A stretch of 64,000 bases of DNA from a virus. Lineage: Duplodnaviria; Caudoviricetes. Below, in pieces: positions 3,427 to 35,874 of the stretch. Made by a program: the position numbers and the translations under genes. The notes under the pieces are model-generated. The model had not been told where the DNA came from. It was given only the letters and a program-made list of their open reading frames with translations, and ran no database searches. Location: positions 51,336 to 115,335 of the IMG/VR virus record IMGVR_UViG_3300014204_000125. One strand, 5' to 3'. Position 1 is the first letter of the stretch; the number at the start of each line of letters is the position of its first letter.

Positions 3427-3617
3427 CCGCGAATCACATCTTTGGGATAATCGTTTTTATGAAATCCCGGGCCTTTCAGGATCGACGCATTCGAATAGGC
3501 TTCGACCCGCTGCATTAATACAGAGCACTCGGAGCACACGACTTTAATGTTTTTGTTCTTGACAAGAAACTCTTTTGATTTCTCACACTTAGGGCAATTA
3601 TATTCAAACAGTGGCAT
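3423..3617 (-). CDS. FmdB-family zinc-ribbon protein
   Basis: MPLFEYNCPKC...CSECS...KGPGFHKNDY. Confidence 0.85.
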   Translation of the reverse strand: MPLFEYNCPKCEKSKEFLVKNKNIKVVCSECSVLMQRVEAYSNASILKGPGFHKNDYPKDVIRG

Positions 3618-4038
3618 CTTTGTCTTCCTTTCGGAGTATAGCGGAAATTATTTTTGCATTTTGCCTTAGCAGTTGCTCTGGGTTGGGAATAGAAGTTTCG
3701 ACGCCTTCGAAGACGTAGTCCACAAAATCAAATCTATCTAAATTAACTCTTTCTGGGTCAACTAAAATAGATACAGGAATATGGAACCAATAAAACTTTT
3801 CTTTGTCAAAATAATCTTTGAATAAAACGCACAACGACTCGCCCCAACTCTCAGCCGACCTATTGGCTCTGAGAGAAGGTTCAAGATCATCGGCCCTACA
3901 ATATCCTATTGCAGAATCGAGTGCGCCTTCAATGGCCTTCGCGCACCCGAGTCCTTCGACCAAAAAAGAATAAGAGTCATCATATCTTTCTAAGGAAAAC
4001 TCTCCTATATCCATTCTCGGAATTGTTTTTTTATCCAT
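3604..4038 (-). CDS. Hypothetical protein
   Basis: 144 aa, overlaps both neighbours in the operon. Confidence 0.6.
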   Translation of the reverse strand: MDKKTIPRMDIGEFSLERYDDSYSFLVEGLGCAKAIEGALDSAIGYCRADDLEPSLRANRSAESWGESLCVLFKDYFDKEKFYWFHIPVSILVDPERVNLDRFDFVDYVFEGVETSIPNPEQLLRQNAKIISAILRKEDKDATV

Positions 4039-4675
4039 AAGTTTTAACCTCTTTCAGATAGAGCCCGCCGGCCTTTATCTCTATTGTCTTGATTACCCCG
4101 CGATTCAGTATGTCTTGGAGATTTCCGCGCGCGCTTGAGTGGTTCGCATAGTGATGCGGGATATGTCTTAACGCCTCACTCAAAGTGACTCCAGGGTTAT
4201 TGCCGACATACGTCTCGAGGAGTTGGCAGGTTTCCCGGAACGGGGACCAGTATTGCCGATTCGCGCTGCCGGAGGGGCTAAATGTTTTCTGTTTCTCGTA
4301 TAGGGTAAGTTTCAAAACTTTGCGGGTAAATACGGGTTCCACGGCTTTTCGGATCTCCTGGGTTGAGATACAGAAATAAAAGACTCCGATCCCAAGTTTC
4401 CGCGCTATGTGTTCGACCGTGTGCCTGATACTATAAGAAGCGGGGTACGGGACACATATAGAGACCTTATGGCAATACTGTTGCGCCGTAATAGCCTGAT
4501 CCAGAACACTCAGGCAAGCCGTAACCTTAACCTCAATCCCCCAACGCATGACCCCACACACCGACACGACATCGATTACATTCCCTTGCCGGCCCGTTGT
4601 GACTTCCATGTAATTCGTGAAGCCGTGGGTCTCCATGTATTTAAGCATGTGTTGGGCTAATTCGGTTTCCTTCAA
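4031..4675 (-). CDS. PD-(D/E)XK nuclease-family protein (MmcB-like)
   Basis: N-terminal E, then EV...IDVV...IEVK...LDQA pattern. Confidence 0.6.
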   Translation of the reverse strand: MKETELAQHMLKYMETHGFTNYMEVTTGRQGNVIDVVSVCGVMRWGIEVKVTACLSVLDQAITAQQYCHKVSICVPYPASYSIRHTVEHIARKLGIGVFYFCISTQEIRKAVEPVFTRKVLKLTLYEKQKTFSPSGSANRQYWSPFRETCQLLETYVGNNPGVTLSEALRHIPHHYANHSSARGNLQDILNRGVIKTIEIKAGGLYLKEVKTYG

Positions 4676-8522: not shown

Positions 8523-8747
8523 TCCAATATAAACAAAAATCACCTTCTCCTATCTCGCGGCGTATCCTCGGGCAACACACCCAAAACAATGCGATAAAGA
8601 GAAAGCGATCCCAAAGTTCCATCGGGTCCGAAGGAAACCAACACCGGGTTGATATCCGGCATAACCCTTCGCCTCTTGCAAAACCCCGGGCGAATTTCTT
8701 TCATAGCTTACGAATAAAGTGTACCAGAAATCAATCCAGAAGTAAAC

Positions 8748-8777
8748 AAAAAAAAGTCCTGAATTTCTTCAAGACTT
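8748..8777 (-). terminator. Intrinsic terminator of the ncRNA operon
   Basis: AAGTCTTGAA-GAAA-TTCAGGACTT followed by a T-run on the minus strand. Confidence 0.85.
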
Positions 8778-8795
8778 CTTTTGCCGGGTGTACGC

Positions 8796-9090: not shown

Positions 9091-9500
9091 TGGTGGAGGT
9101 GTGGGAAATTGCATCCCAGTCCGAAGATCTTTCCCTGTCTTGATTTTTACACGCTTATCCCTTTTACCCGCGGGAAGGGTGTCGGTTTTGAGGCGTTACC
9201 CTGTGTCATGGTAGAACAACCGATGCCCCATGATCCACTTGCGTTAGATTCTTTACGCGGATAACTCCGTTGGCAAGTTCGCAGAGTTTTTACGCGGGCG
9301 TCCCCTTTCGGTTCGGCCGTGGGTTCACAATTAAGCGGCTAACATAACAGGAGCGAGTTCTTTTACGAACAAACCTCTGACAATATTGTCCACCTGATCG
9401 AGAACTGAATTAGTTTTGGCAATTAGTGTTTGTGCATTAAGGAAGCACGCCTTTGCGTGACAAGATAGTTCGTTATCTCCGTCGAAACTAGTTCACCCCC
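9091..9500 (-). ncRNA. ssrA: tmRNA (410 nt)
   Basis: 5' GGGGGTGAACTAGTTTCGAC; 3' GAC-TGGGA-TGCAATT-TCCCA-CACCTCC-ACCA; acceptor stem with G3-U; tag ORF 9420-9331 AKTNSVLDQVDNIVRGLFVKELAPVMLAA*. Confidence 0.95.
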
Positions 9501-12691: not shown

Positions 12692-13909
12692 TTCTTTTCT
12701 TTGGAAAGTAAAAAAAAAAAATATTTCAGTAACCCTATTCCAAAACTCGGAGCAATAAGGATTGTATTCTCTATAGTCAGAGATAAGATAGTCTATAGTC
12801 TTATACTGTACTCTGATATTGGATCACTATGATTGACAGGATAAGAGATATCTTGAACTAGTATGTATTAGAGTTCAGTAGTTATAAACAGCAAGTTTGA
12901 TTACTTATAACGCTCGCGTATGGTGATCTGTATAGCGATATACGTTGTATTACTATGTACAGTATTAGAGTAGTGCAAGTGTATACTCGCAATAACATAA
13001 GACAGAGTTATATACACTGGGATACTGAGTATATAACCCCGTCTTGCACACACGCGGTCTATATCAGTATAAGCGATGGGTGTGGGGGCGACCAAATTAT
13101 TGCTTCGAGGCCCCCTCATTCCAACCGCCCCTACCGGGCGGCGGGGGGCAGCCCGCAGGGCGTTGCCCCAATAGCCGCACAGGAGAATACCTGTATTCTA
13201 TTTTATATTTATTCTATACAAAATAAGATAATATTATATCTATTCTACTCTGTATAAATATAATGCTATGTTATTTCTATGTTATGCAAGTATGGTATAT
13301 ACGAGTTATGAGTAACACATAGAATAACGAGTTACACTTTTACTACTAGCCACGCGCATATATGGGCACGCATGCGCGACTGTTGATTTTAAGTCATATA
13401 TCTAATTTATTCAGAGATAGAATAAGAAATTCTTGCTGCTTTCTTGGAATTAAAGAACTGGGGTTCCCGGGGTTACGAGGAACCCCTGGATCTCAAAGGT
13501 ACCATAGAAATTTTGAATAGAAACCTCATACCCGGTATTAGGATACCCCGGATTCAAAAAAACTGGGTTTCCTTGAAGATTTGAGGTATTTCTGGTTATG
13601 CTGGGGTTACTGGGTGGTTACGCTTTGGTTATAAACAGAAAATGTGTAGGGAAATCCAACACATTTACAATAATTAGTTTACATAACTGGGATAAAAAGT
13701 GTGGGATAACCCAACACTATACTGATAACGCGCATAAATAGCCTATTAGCGCGTATATAAAAAATGGCATGTTTCCATGCTATGCAAATTCTGCATGGTA
13801 CCACGCAATTTTTTCGCTGTAGTTAAAAAGTTACACCCTGCTATCGAGCAGGATACGAAATTTATGCATACCTGATTTATTTTTAATCTGCTTTTATTCG
13901 ATTTCAGAA

Positions 13910-15407: not shown

Positions 15408-16118
15408 ATGAATAATGCTAAAATCGAAAAAATGGAAAACCAGAAAATTGTTAACGCTTCCGCGAAAAACCTTGAAAACATGATACAAGGAAAACCGGTA
15501 GTTTTCCCTGTATCAATTCAGAACAAAAAACCGGAAAACGTTGAAACGAAAACCGAAAACATTACCGAAAACGTGAAAAACAATTCCATTGTTATCGGAC
15601 AGAAAACCTTGAACGTAAAAGTAAATATCGGCCCTATAACCCAAAAGTTTTTCGATCACGTTTTCGCCGAAAAACTCGAAAACTGGGAAAACAGCAAAAA
15701 AACCGCTTTAAAAAATAACGATTTGGACAAGCTCGAAAAACTCGAAGAAAACCCGCCTAAACGCGAAAATATCGAAAACGCTTGCTATTTTCAGGTCATA
15801 AACGCCCTGACCCTTACTCAAATTGCCATTGAAAGCAAATCAGTCCAGTCCGGCGTTCTCTCTCTCTCTAAGTCAAAATTGACCGGCAAAAATGTTAAAA
15901 ACGCCGAGTTTTTCGCCGAGGACGTTGAAAACGTTTTGAAAACCGGATTATACAATTCTGAAATGGTAATAACGTTTCATTACGGTATCACGGATAAGGC
16001 GGGAGTATATTTCACCACGTTTTCAAATTTTGCACATACTTGCAAGGTCAATGGCGTCAATCCGGCAGAACGTAAGGCAAAAAGCCCGGTTTTTATCGGG
16101 ACATTCAAGATAAGATAA
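15408..16118 (+). CDS. Hypothetical protein, first gene of the rightward arm
   Basis: 236 aa, N/K/E-rich, isolated within an AT-rich repeat region, with RBS and promoter. Confidence 0.75.
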   Translation: MNNAKIEKMENQKIVNASAKNLENMIQGKPVVFPVSIQNKKPENVETKTENITENVKNNSIVIGQKTLNVKVNIGPITQKFFDHVFAEKLENWENSKKTALKNNDLDKLEKLEENPPKRENIENACYFQVINALTLTQIAIESKSVQSGVLSLSKSKLTGKNVKNAEFFAEDVENVLKTGLYNSEMVITFHYGITDKAGVYFTTFSNFAHTCKVNGVNPAERKAKSPVFIGTFKIR

Positions 16119-16253
16119 TTTAAAATAGTTTTCCGGCCGGGTTAATACGGTTTGAAAAAACCGGCCCGGTCTTATATAGTTTATATTTTTATTCTTAAAA
16201 ACGCTCTTTAACATATCCGAAAAACTATGAGAAAACAATGGTATAATCGTTTT

Positions 16254-16366
16254 CTTGATACCATGTATCAAGACCCGGATAAGATCCGATAAAACGATTA
16301 ACACGTTAAAACGGCCCTTTATAAGACCTATTAAGACCGTTTTAAAACTTGATATCATGTATCAAG
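16254..16366. repeat. Two CTTGATA-N5-TATCAAG palindromes
   Basis: 16254-16272 and 16348-16366; same half-site as the AAGTATCAA repeats. Confidence 0.8.
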
Positions 16367-16649
16367 ACAATGCTAACAAGCATTACCCGGAGTAAGTATT
16401 ATAGTTTTGTATATTGTCTTTATACGCCCTTATCCGGCGTATTATCCGAAAAAAAACGGATAGAATTTTAGCGCGATTAATCCGAAAAATTTTAACAAGT
16501 TTTGAAAATCATGTAAACCTTGACAGAAAACGGATTGACACGAAAAATTGATATCTTGTAAAAAGTTTTGAAACGTCTGAAAAATTTACGAAAAAAACTT
16601 TTTGCGATAAGATAGAATAAAATTTTTTAAGATAATACGGATATTAGAA

Positions 16650-17137
16650 CGAAAAATCGACGCTTTATGACCGTCGATAGTTTTCGCGTTGCTCACGAAA
16701 CGAGCCACGGCCAGTAGTAGTGTTACTTTGATAACATAGGCCGCGTGTTCTCCTGCATGACCCAAAGCGATATTGGTTTAGTGATAGACCATACCTCGCG
16801 GGAACAAAAACATAAGCATTGCAGGCGAGTTGATTCCCCTATGGAGTGCGCTTAATTCAGGCTGGAATCGGGAAGTCCTCTTTAAGACGGAGGCAAAGAC
16901 GGGTAAAAACGATAGGCCGCGCTCACTATGTCCAAATGGGACGGCGCTCTTGAGTGTAAACATTCAAGACCTATCACTATATAGATCCGAAGATCGGGAG
17001 GAAATTGTATCCCTTGGATCGAGTATAGCCCTGAACACTACATGACAATAGGTCGGGGGCGCTGCGGTTTAGCGAACGGGCGTCCCTGGCTGCCTAAACA
17101 CGAGACGGTCTATCAGAAATGGTAGGCCGTCTTTTTT
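16650..17137 (+). ncRNA. Candidate large structured RNA/leader (~480 nt)
   Basis: GC-richer segment with at least 9 stems, e.g. ATCGACG/CGTCGAT, TGGTTTA-GTGA-TAGACCA, CTGCA/TGCAG, GATTCC/GGAATC, GATAGG/CCTATC, TCTTGAGTG/CATTCAAGA, GATCCGA/TTGGATC, GGGGCGCT/GGCGTCCC. Confidence 0.65.
17103..17137 (+). terminator. Intrinsic terminator
   Basis: AGACGGTCTATCA-GAAA-TGGTAGGCCGTCT-TTTTT. Confidence 0.9.
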
Positions 17138-17169
17138 ACATTCAAGACAAAATTTGGGAGGCGATTATT

Positions 17170-20100
17170 ATGAACGGACAAATGTGGTATCTCAAGTATC
17201 ACCCGGCAGACGGCCGCAAATTAATGTCACCTGAAACCAAGGCCAAAATCAAAACTATTCTCGAGGGTCTTGTTAAGGCCGGCAAAATTCATTCATTTTT
17301 CATCGGGTTCCTCGAAAAGAATAACCCCAAGACCGAAGTATTCAAGATCTCCAGGACAAACGATCACAGGTGCGGCGCCGTCTACGATTCGATCGCTACG
17401 CTCGAAGGCGTTGAAAGGTTCATCGCCTACAGGGACGCAGACCACTATAACGCTTATGATATGTAGGATGTGATTATTATGGCGTCACAATTAAATAATC
17501 TGGAGGCTGAGGTCGAACTTCTCAAAGCTCTCAATGCCGCCTATCTCAAGCACAACATCAGCAGAGCGGATTATAAAAGGATCCGCGATGCTATAACCTC
17601 ATTAAATTGGAGGGAGGAATAATTATGAAAAACGAATCCTGCGACATCTTCAATCTGGTTTACAACGATTTTTCTAAAGGCCGCAACCTTGCTGACTCCA
17701 CAGGCCAGATCTTAAACAGCTTGCCTCCCGTGTATAGGATGGCTATTTTGTCCAGAGTGTTAGACTTCATGAACTGGGGGAAATAAACAATGGACGACGC
17801 AATATTTATGGGATCCCTGTTTACCCTGCTTTTCGTAATCACCGGGACGGTGGCATTATTCTTATAATAAGACCCGCCGTCTCCGTACAAGACAGGCCGG
17901 CGAGACCCTTTATGCCTGTCCCTGTCAAACCTAAACCCCAAGACAATAGTTTCGCGGCTATCTTAGAGAGATACATGAGGTGATATTATGCAGTTATCAA
18001 GTTTTGTTGGACCCGTCCCGGCGACATCCAAGGAAAGGCGCACCCGGTTAAGGCTGTGCGTCAGACTGATCAATCATTTTTTCTCTCCGATATATTGGGG
18101 CAAGACCAATTTCAATGATACCGAGTTCAACGCAATGGGCGAGGTTGAGACCATGCACTTAGGGGCACAATACAAAATTATGCCCTGCACTTTCGGTGGC
18201 GTATTCCAATTTCAAGGTTATCTTGTTTCCGGCCCCGGGTTCAAACAGGCGGTGCTCTATGAGTGAAATAACCCGGCGCATCCAGGCCGAGATCGACACG
18301 TGCAATCTAATTCTGTACTGGTCAATTCTGGTCTGCAAGGTTTCGTTCTGTGTTTTGATCACGGCCGTCATATTGACACGGGCCGGTATTTTAAAGTGAG
18401 GTGCATTATGTTCCCTATCGAAAATCGAATCCATGTTTTCAATCTGTCCTCGACTCGCAAGACCAACGATAACATATACAAAGCGTATCGAGATTTCGTT
18501 CGCGCCAACCCCAATTTCAAGGCGTGCATTGTGTCGGAGAATTGTGGTCTTATCTGCGTTCAAAGCGACTATCACAACCTGACGGCGATGGAGGTCTATG
18601 GGGTCGAATTCATCAATAACGTAAAGAAGATGGAGGTGTAGCTATGCTATGTCACGCCAATGAGAGATATCAGTTGGTTCTCTCGATTTACAACGACATG
18701 CTCAAAGATGAGGTGTCGAGACTCGGACTCAATTCAATTCTGGATCTCAGTCAGGAATGCCGGCAGACCAAATGGATGACTGCCAAGGCCATGATTACAC
18801 TGCCAATGCGTAATCTGGCGTATAAAAACAACGATGCGGCTTATATTTTACAGTAGGAGGCATTTATGGACGCTATTTATCTTACCAAGACCGACACAAT
18901 GGCGAAGATCGCCGCGACTATCGGGTATGGCGGAACAAAATTTAGGGTGCGCATTGAGAAAGGCCCGTTTGATCTTCGGAGTTATTGGGACGGAGGTTCC
19001 CGGGATCAGTATTATTTACTCGATATCAAGACCGGGCTTCCTCTTCCCCTGCGAACCCAGACCGCGCCGGCCGAGTTCGGTGGACATGCAAGTTCTTTCA
19101 TGCTTGAACCCGGGCAGATTCTTGTTCGGCACTCAACATTCTGTGGCAAAGACATGGGACTCGAACTCTCTGTTTCTCCCGACAATCCCGAGATTATTAA
19201 GGCGCTCATGCCGCCAGACTCGGGTATCGAACTGTCAGAGAATGAACTGTTCGTTCTCTACACCATCGGACACTTGAAGTCATGCGCCAGACCTGACGAG
19301 TATCGCAAGGCTGGCTTCAAGACGGCAGAGATCGACAGAATAAAAGTGAAGCTCCTCCAGATGGGGCTTTTAACGAAGATTGGCGCCATCACCGTCGAGG
19401 GGCGCAACTTCGTCAATCAGGCCGCGAGCAAGCGTAATGTATCATCGCATTCGCTTTTCCCGTGGCAATGGCAGAAGACCCCTGAAGCCATTGAGGCAAA
19501 GGCGGTGTAATATGGTAGACTTCTTCGGACTCGGGCCGTCACCCGTTGAGGCCGGGTGTGTTCAGGTATTGTCAGGACAGCCTGAAACTTATATTGAAAG
19601 CTGTCGTGAGGTTCATAATTATGTAAACCTATTGCGGAAACTATTCGTCAATATAATAGACGCCGATCGCATTTATTCCAAGAAATTCGATCACGACTTC
19701 GGCCCGTATAATGAGGCCGTTGTTAGTTTTGAGACTGACAACGAGGACCAAGTCAAGCGGGCTCTATTTATCGAGTCCCACACCCCGGCGCATTGGATCC
19801 ACGACGAAGACATTGTGCCGTACACCGAAAATCAATTCAATGAATGGGTAAAAGCCAAGTATGAGCCATTTAAGGAGGCGACATTATGAATTACAAAAAC
19901 ATATCTACCGATACCCTCGTAAGTATGATCCCTGGATTGTGCAGGACTTACCGATTCGCACACCAGGACGAAACGCTTCACAAACTGGTAAGTATTATCG
20001 CCGCGTTAGACGAACGTGGTTTCTACAAGGGGGCGATAATATGAAACGGTGGATTCACCCAGAATTGGTTCAATACATCCGGGCCTTCGTCTGGAACCAT

Positions 20101-20809: not shown

Positions 20810-20958
20810 AATGATAGACGAGACAAGCGTAGAATCTATAACTAAACTCGGCCGGACAGAGATCCGGTATCGTAAAGACGGCAAGGTTGTCCGTGAAACA
20901 TACAACGACTTCTCGGTGGCTATGAACCGCCAGAGAACGCTTGAAAGGGGTGAATAGT

Positions 20959-34982: not shown

Positions 34983-35874
34983 CTGGGAGCCGCCGCTTCG
35001 CAATGTCGAGTTAATGCCTGTTTCCGGCGGGAACTTAAAGGCATTACTGAACTCTGGGGCGGATGCCATTTACATTTATGACATCGGCCCGCATTTCGAG
35101 TATTACTGTAACACCGAGGAGATCTTGGAGTCCCCGGGGCTACAGGGAAGGATCGTGGAATGGATCGATCATCACACTTACGCTTGGAAATCCGAGACCC
35201 TTGAGAAACACAAGTTTCTACACATTCGAGAATCGCTTGCGTGTTCGAGCCTCGTGAGCCAAATCCAAATCAGACCGAGGCAAAGCGTAACGATCGCGTA
35301 TTCGAATGATGTAGATGGGTTCATATCGACCCTGATAGCGTTATGCGAAAACAAAATGAGCCTGGACGGACTCTTTACTATCTGTGGGGTTGCCCAAGCC
35401 TGCGACACAGCCGACTTCATTCGGAACCCCGAGGCTTTGAAATGGCACAAGGCGGTATCCGCGAACAGGCATTACAGGCTCATCTGGGATCTCTATGAAA
35501 GCGTGAGCAAAAAGGAAACCTGGTGGAATCAATGCTCTAATTTCAAGAAGTCTATCGAGAAGTACGATAAGACGATTCTACCGGCGAACCAGAGAATGAT
35601 AAAGGAAAGGAGGTGCTATAAGGGGGTGCCGATCGTAAACTCGGCATTCGTCGATATCTGTGATATATCGTATATCGCGGATTATTTGAGGAAGCAATCT
35701 CGTTTCTTGGTAATAGAAAGCAACGGGGCAATCAAAGTTACATGCAACGACCCCGGGATCAATTTATCCGCGATATTCGGCAGCATTGGCGCGCCTTTTA
35801 AGGTGTCAATAAAAAGAAAAGGAAATGTCTTGACACCCGAGGCGATTGTAGATATAATATTATCGAGGGTATAA
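34972..35874 (+). CDS. DHH-family phosphoesterase (atypical motif order)
   Basis: IYIYDIG, WIDHH, ACSSLV, SNDVDG, ACDT. Confidence 0.65.
   Translation: MKNNWEPPLRNVELMPVSGGNLKALLNSGADAIYIYDIGPHFEYYCNTEEILESPGLQGRIVEWIDHHTYAWKSETLEKHKFLHIRESLACSSLVSQIQIRPRQSVTIAYSNDVDGFISTLIALCENKMSLDGLFTICGVAQACDTADFIRNPEALKWHKAVSANRHYRLIWDLYESVSKKETWWNQCSNFKKSIEKYDKTILPANQRMIKERRCYKGVPIVNSAFVDICDISYIADYLRKQSRFLVIESNGAIKVTCNDPGINLSAIFGSIGAPFKVSIKRKGNVLTPEAIVDIILSRV

Follow-up and report, generated by a model that had tools for sequence, protein, structure and literature searches.

A densely folded leader with a conserved terminator, a candidate gate to the rightward genes of an uncultured phage

How is the long rightward gene block of this phage reached by transcription, and what is the GC-richer, gene-free segment that stands directly in front of it? 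The phage is a 115,335-bp IMG/VR record with direct terminal repeats, and our analysis covers a 64-kb window (bases 51336–115335 of the record); coordinates below are those of the window unless stated otherwise. The leftward genes of the phage stop near 12.6 kb and are followed by a ~3.5-kb AT-rich region (12.9–16.6 kb), which holds one isolated gene (15408–16118) and many operator-like repeats. From 17170 on, small SD-led ORFs are tightly strung in the rightward direction, and after them come the replication genes (beta clamp, RtcB, RecT, DnaB, DnaE, nuclease, helicase and primase). The segment in question, at 16650–17137 on the + strand, fills the very interval that separates the AT-rich region from the first of these ORFs.

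A preliminary description had suggested that the site holds either a large structured RNA of a new type or a gate that acts in cis. The analysis reported here supports that proposal: the segment matches no known family, its fold is strand-specific and the layout around it is kept in relatives. We put the probability at about 0.5 that the segment is a structured leader acting in cis, with a conserved terminator that controls entry to the rightward genes, which we presume to be early.

The segment is non-coding and matches no known RNA family

The GC content rises from 0.30 at 16500–16699 to 0.485–0.515 at 16700–17099. Within the leader (16650–17137), all six frames are closed by stop codons of all three kinds. 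The longest ORFs encode 71, 61 and 59 aa, none of them with an SD-type ribosome-binding site (RBS), and the five longest have no Pfam or PHROGs match at E ≤ 1. A coding reading was rejected on the grounds of stops in every frame, missing SD sequences and the lack of Pfam or PHROG matches. All three stop codons are used at gene ends in a six-frame check, so there is no sign of recoding. The description of a GC-richer segment lacking a convincing RBS-led ORF is thus borne out.

Known RNA families were sought by cmscan with Rfam 15, which covers GOLLD, ROOL, HEARO, OLE, group I and II introns and T-boxes, as well as riboswitches, tmRNA, RNase P and 6S RNA. At gathering level, the sole match in the whole window is a tmRNA at 9091–9500. 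This is a full-length, phage-borne tmRNA gene on the − strand (RF00023, 92.1 bits). At E ≤ 10, the interval 16300–17400 gave four chance-level matches, to unrelated families only, and the leader therefore has no known family even at this permissive threshold. The preliminary description had recognised neither GOLLD nor ROOL in the segment, and neither of these two Rfam models matches at E ≤ 10. An intron remnant was likewise rejected, there being no flanking exons and no intron model match, with AT-rich and non-coding DNA upstream.

The leader is single-copy in its own genome. Its DNA has no blastn match in the phage collection, it is absent from four other large phages that carry DnaE, and nhmmer did not find it in 233 loci reached through neighbouring proteins.

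The leader folds on the + strand

The + strand of 16640–17140 folds to −168.3 kcal/mol (z −3.62), with 0 of 100 shuffles as good, compared with z −1.40 for the − strand. Of seven local modules, six reach z ≤ −2.3 on the + strand, and on the − strand every one is weaker. Ranked by GC-corrected folding energy among real 501-nt windows of the whole genome, the leader is fifth of 459 (z −2.3). It is clearly structured, while not a unique outlier among genomic windows, over which its excess of folding energy is moderate. The most extreme GC-corrected folding energy genome-wide belongs to 12890–13390 on the + strand (z −3.4), which overlaps a GC island at ~13081–13175 on the left edge of the large non-coding region.

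More than ten helices have a mean pair probability (P) above 0.7, where at least nine had been counted by inspection, and most stems lie above 0.85. Two hairpins open the 5′ end, at 16650–16686 (P 0.94–0.97) and 16687–16709 (P 0.75–0.95); together, this module (16650–16709) has z −2.46 on the + strand versus −1.62 on the − strand. A central multi-helix domain follows at 16717–17041, closed by a helix of 16717–24 with 17034–41 (P 0.65), and most of its inner helices have P 0.85–0.99. Its sub-domains lie at 16752–16825, 16830–16871 and 16877–16893, followed by a Y-shaped junction at 16911–16975 and a long hairpin at 16977–17028. The first of these includes a hairpin at 16774–16791 capped by GUGA, the GNRA tetraloop of the preliminary description. 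The interval 16909–17030 has z −4.73 on the + strand and −1.52 on the − strand.

Between the central domain and the 3′ end, a 13-bp hairpin with five G·U pairs is predicted at 17051–17091 (P 0.91). On the + strand it reaches −24.2 kcal/mol (z −2.89), compared with −7.6 kcal/mol (z +1.55) on the − strand, in line with the remark that the G·U pairs fit one strand only; by this model, the hairpin can form only in + strand RNA. The two long-range pairings that had been proposed fared differently. The pair 16911/16970 is present in the fold (P 0.95). For 16744/17097, the complementary letters exist, but the pair is absent from both the MFE and the MEA fold; instead, the centre is closed by 16717–24/17034–41.

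A strong terminator precedes the first gene and candidate promoters lie upstream

The leader ends in an intrinsic terminator at 17098–17140 (+; stem 17102–17133) with 14 pairs, three of them G·U, a GAAA loop and a run of six U (z −6.79). It stands 36 nt upstream of the ATG of the first ORF at 17170, close to the 13 bp and 33 nt given in the preliminary description. It is also the strongest + strand terminator within 17–37 kb, and no further strong one was found on that strand in this range. The first rightward gene (17155–17466, +) has its RBS at 17155–17160 and its ATG at 17170. Its 98-aa product is an orphan that, among 5.8 billion sequences, matches only copies of itself; the members of its cluster are identical copies that differ in their start calls.

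A candidate sigma-70-type promoter at 16520–16548 (+) combines a perfect −35 element, a 17-nt spacer and an A-rich −10 element. Only four such + strand sites, this one included, occur in the 115-kb genome, and an RNA that starts from it would have its 5′ end near 16555. Two further promoter-like sites lie at 16243–16275 and 16349–16370, each running directly into a near-perfect palindrome based on the word GTATCAAG. Judged by their sequence, these sites near 16243 and 16353 look like repressor-controlled promoters and would also read into the leader.

All the nearby sigma-70-like sites on the + strand are thus upstream of the leader. The gap of ~30 nt between the U-run of the terminator and the ATG leaves no room for a promoter between terminator and first ORF. 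The next + strand consensus promoter by a strict regular expression is at 35830–35858 (12/12 matches), directly ahead of the RtcB ligase gene and replication genes, and it probably marks a separate transcription unit. A looser scan of the DNA before 35830 gave weaker + strand candidates, with 9–10 of 12 matches, inside the downstream block. With the nearby promoters placed upstream, the genes from 17170 to at least ~22.9 kb should be reached only through the leader and its terminator, and since there is no promoter room after the terminator, transcription of the downstream genes would depend on read-through. Leader and terminator together would then act as a gate.

Candidate antiterminator strands in the leader

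The preliminary description had also proposed a switch, in which 16669–16675 pairs either locally or with the 5′ arm of the terminator. The 7-mer complementarity between 16669 and 17104 is real, and so is the local hairpin that sequesters 16669–16675 (P 0.97). This particular switch was not supported: the relatives described below have no excess of words complementary to the terminator arms, and one isolated 7-mer match is little more than chance would give. A switch through other words of the leader may nevertheless operate.

A better, though speculative, candidate for an antiterminator strand is the 9-nt stretch 16782–16790 (+). It is a perfect complement of 17107–17115 in the terminator 5′ arm, and in the predicted fold it is normally paired within the GUGA hairpin. 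Within the phage's own leader, words complementary to the terminator arms are in excess: four 7-mers are observed where 0.18 are expected, a count reached by 1 of 500 shuffles, and six 6-mers where 1.06 are expected. No such excess is present in the leaders of the relatives L245 and L261, which is why we treat the role of 16782–16790 as speculative, and no antiterminator pairing conserved across the three leaders was found.

The layout recurs in two distant relatives

The DnaE relatives of the phage are a small set at 36–39% identity, some of them on ~116-kb contigs. A DnaE alignment led to one IMG/VR lineage and, through three successive protein queries, to L245 (contig 3300025009_000004, 117.7 kb). 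An alignment of proteins from two lineages led to L261 (G005:C16; MAG contig CALCZC010000016.1, 116.5 kb), a complete-looking relative. Both are distant, with DnaE 37–43% identical and genomes of ~117 kb. The DnaE of L261, 39–43% identical to that of the phage, bears an intein within an open frame of 1599 aa.

Several other candidates were set aside. Loci L247–L260 have just one protein in common with the relatives, and a 116.9-kb phage (G001) proved not to be a relative. Searches that started from the 200-aa protein at 20941, or from more remote family members of the 214-aa protein, led to unrelated phages only. In a further relative, L236, a protein at 3439–4611 is 73% identical to a 393-aa protein of the phage encoded outside the window (genome 27733–28914, −), compared with 22–44% for the other proteins common to the two. 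This suggests that the 393-aa gene was recently exchanged or is mobile.

All three phages keep the same layout (3/3): an AT-rich promoter region, an ORF-free leader of 480–600 nt, a terminator, an RBS and an ORF. In L245, an AT-rich stretch is followed by an ORF-free, GC-richer leader at 2030–2625, with its terminator at 2578–2617 (GAAA loop), then an RBS and an ATG at 2647. A homologue of the 214-aa protein of the phage (window 18866–19510) lies at 3529–4131, at 44% identity. In L261, DnaE lies 22.7 kb downstream of the leader, compared with 24.3 kb in the phage. The syntenic position is therefore the same: before the first rightward ORF, upstream of the homologue of the 214-aa protein and ~23 kb before DnaE. 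Sites with a −35 element, a 17-nt spacer and an A-rich −10 element are also found ahead of the L245 and L261 leaders, and the genes upstream of the three leaders have no homology.

The relatives' leaders are folded as well. For that of L245, z is −6.29 for the + strand compared with −4.47 for the − strand, and Rfam gave no match; that of L261 has z −3.39. The two align with each other over ~500 nt (nhmmer, E 7.8e-22). Most of their indels, which measure 1, 3, 4, 7, 8, 11, 12 and 28 nt, would shift a reading frame, and this speaks against coding. RNAalifold of the two leaders gives 91 pairs, 21 of them changed on both sides. In the 5′ block, 60/60 cells pair, with six compensatory pairs compared with at most two in controls with slid partners. 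With two sequences, this supports, but does not prove, that the L245 and L261 leaders are real structured RNA. The compensatory changes were scored between these two; the phage's own leader is known from identical copies only.

L261 is binned in a MAG of ~1.1 Mb, and near genomes and phylum-mates of that MAG are mostly 0.6–1.2 Mb. The hosts may therefore be bacteria whose genomes are very small, although this is no more than a hint and binning can be wrong. The 60 relatives and 400 phylum-mates of the MAG that were searched have no further copy.

The terminator is homologous and the body of the phage leader is dissimilar

No part of the leader is better conserved than the terminator hairpin, which L245 and L261 have in identical form. 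A covariance model of this hairpin has its best match in the 64-kb window, on either strand, at 17098–17140 (24.4 bits, E about 2e-5), which is the terminator of the phage's own leader. The homologue search named as a check in the preliminary description returned the same arrangement of leader and terminator in two distant relatives, with the terminator homologous. The second-best match of the model is a GAAA-type terminator at 8743–8785 (−), just downstream of the tmRNA unit.

Between the phage and its relatives, the loop, its two closing pairs and the outer stem with its U·G pair are kept, one pair has undergone a compensatory flip from G:C to C:G, and the inner stem covaries. This hairpin is the best-conserved non-coding sequence between these phages, whose proteins are 25–44% identical. 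Such conservation goes beyond what a plain terminator needs, and it suggests a stem with alternative partners or a binding factor.

A profile of the whole L245/L261 alignment likewise has its best window match at the terminator end, 17101–17173, although at E 0.53. The leader body gave a different result. With the relatives' leaders, nhmmer found nothing in the body of the phage's own. A model of the relatives' long 5′ hairpin and their nearly invariant core of ~50 nt has no match inside 16640–17100; its best matches elsewhere have E 0.5–3. With a homologous terminator and an unmatched body, we treat the three leaders as positional homologues with a homologous 3′ end. Their membership of one RNA family is partly supported, by position and terminator; as for the bodies, either divergence has erased any recognisable similarity or one body has taken the place of another.

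Short words were compared as well. A motif of AGAC followed by C or G, spotted by eye and thus post hoc, occurs in five, seven and eight copies in the three leaders, where about one is expected. Its copies are irregularly spaced, and in motif density the leader ranks no higher than roughly the top 1% of windows of its own genome. One 8-mer is present in all three leaders, but not significantly so (P 0.18). The phage leader at 16710–16738 and L245 at 2281–2296 have an 8-mer and a 9-mer in common, in the same order, with a 12-nt insert in the former. In L245, the second word forms the 3′ side of the helix around the conserved core, while in the phage it closes a small local hairpin. The two words may be a trace of common descent, although the match is not statistically secure.

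A model for the leader and its alternatives

In the model that we favour, the small genes that run rightward from 17170 would have this segment as their structured 5′ leader. Transcription would start at the sigma-70-like promoters upstream, at 16520–16548 and probably also at ~16243 and ~16353. Polymerase would then make a folded RNA of ~490–580 nt before it reaches the strong terminator at 17102–17139. A terminated, stable RNA of ~0.5 kb would be the default product. How much read-through occurs would depend on how the leader is folded or on a factor bound to it, so that termination here would be regulated and not merely leaky.

The most probable alternative is a free-standing ncRNA of ~0.5 kb that acts in trans, with its own promoter and terminator. 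It might titrate a factor of the host or of a defence system, as a decoy or sponge, or be a structural RNA as other large phage RNAs are, and leakage through the terminator would feed the genes behind it. The size and helix density of the leader, which far exceed what known attenuators need, speak for such an RNA, as do the strong terminator with its extra-stable GAAA loop and U6 run. The enriched AGAC motif could be a repeated binding site, but it was picked post hoc and its density puts the leader only at about the top 1% of windows in the phage's own genome. The missing room for a promoter before the first ORF makes the element a gate whatever other role its RNA has. We consider this alternative unlikely, while giving it the greatest weight among the rivals.

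A DNA-level reading, in which the RNA structure is incidental to a replication origin with iteron-like direct repeats, an array of protein-binding sites or a non-functional remnant, draws on the neighbouring 3.5-kb region full of operator-like repeats and on the direct copies of a short motif in all three leaders. It also draws on the L245 leader, whose − strand folds well too. Against it, the motif copies are irregularly spaced, the G·U-rich helices form on the + strand only, the compensatory changes between L245 and L261 preserve RNA helices, and the element ends in a conserved terminator specific to the + strand. We hold this reading to be improbable.

A processive antitermination RNA, put-like or EAR-like, by which polymerase would be modified to ignore the terminator at 17133 and later ones, would suit a phage element that stands shortly before a terminator and opens a long gene block read in one direction, but it is the least probable of the readings weighed here, as known elements measure 70–120 nt compared with ~500 nt, no similarity to them was found, and processivity is not obviously needed where 17–37 kb holds no other strong + strand terminator.

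Beyond the gate as such, the element may belong to an undescribed class of ~0.5-kb phage RNAs, either a signal-sensing switch or a trans-acting RNA, and thus be more than a passive leader; we raise this tentatively and think it doubtful. A switch of this class could be self-contained, sensing a host or phage signal and opening the whole early and replication programme. A trans-acting member could be a decoy or scaffold with repeated AGAC-type sites, made in bulk from the promoter that fires first.

Comparison with known systems

Detailed knowledge of how phages control their early genes comes from a handful of model phages. Among these, phage lambda offers a parallel in layout. Its PR′–tR′ unit makes a short '6S' transcript with a 194-nt leader and is opened by Q, which loads via DNA and promoter-proximal pause signals. 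As at PR′–tR′, a terminated short default transcript would head a one-directional operon here, and the downstream genes would need read-through. The lambda leader, however, is 194 nt long and has no large folded domain, whereas the element described here measures ~0.5 kb, is densely paired and ends in a terminator hairpin that is conserved in sequence. No Q-like protein was identified in this phage.

The put RNAs of HK022 and the EAR/LoaP leaders of Bacillus are 70–120 nt long, have two to three stems and carry polymerase processively past many terminators. Like them, the leader is a folded RNA at the start of an operon, upstream of a terminator; unlike them, it is ~500 nt long, faces a single strong terminator and has no detectable similarity to either. 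With GOLLD and ROOL it has in common the format of a many-helix RNA of at least 0.5 kb in phages or prophages, whose roles there are unknown or structural. Those RNAs differ in that they do not serve as leaders that run into a terminator immediately ahead of an ORF. Riboswitch and T-box leaders resemble it as structured 5′ leaders with an intrinsic terminator just before the first gene, but the phage leader matches no aptamer or T-box model, is two to three times larger and has no conserved antiterminator pairing.

A regulated gate would make this a transcription-attenuation leader of a new kind, far larger than those known. Should the terminated RNA instead act in trans, the few known families of large structured phage RNAs would gain another member. 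As a defined element of ~500 nt, it is open to in vitro transcription and chemical probing without culture of the host. The general kind, a structured leader with a terminator heading a phage operon, is known. This one matches none of the families described so far, has several times the length of known attenuators and antitermination RNAs, and occurs in at least three lineages of an uncultured clade.
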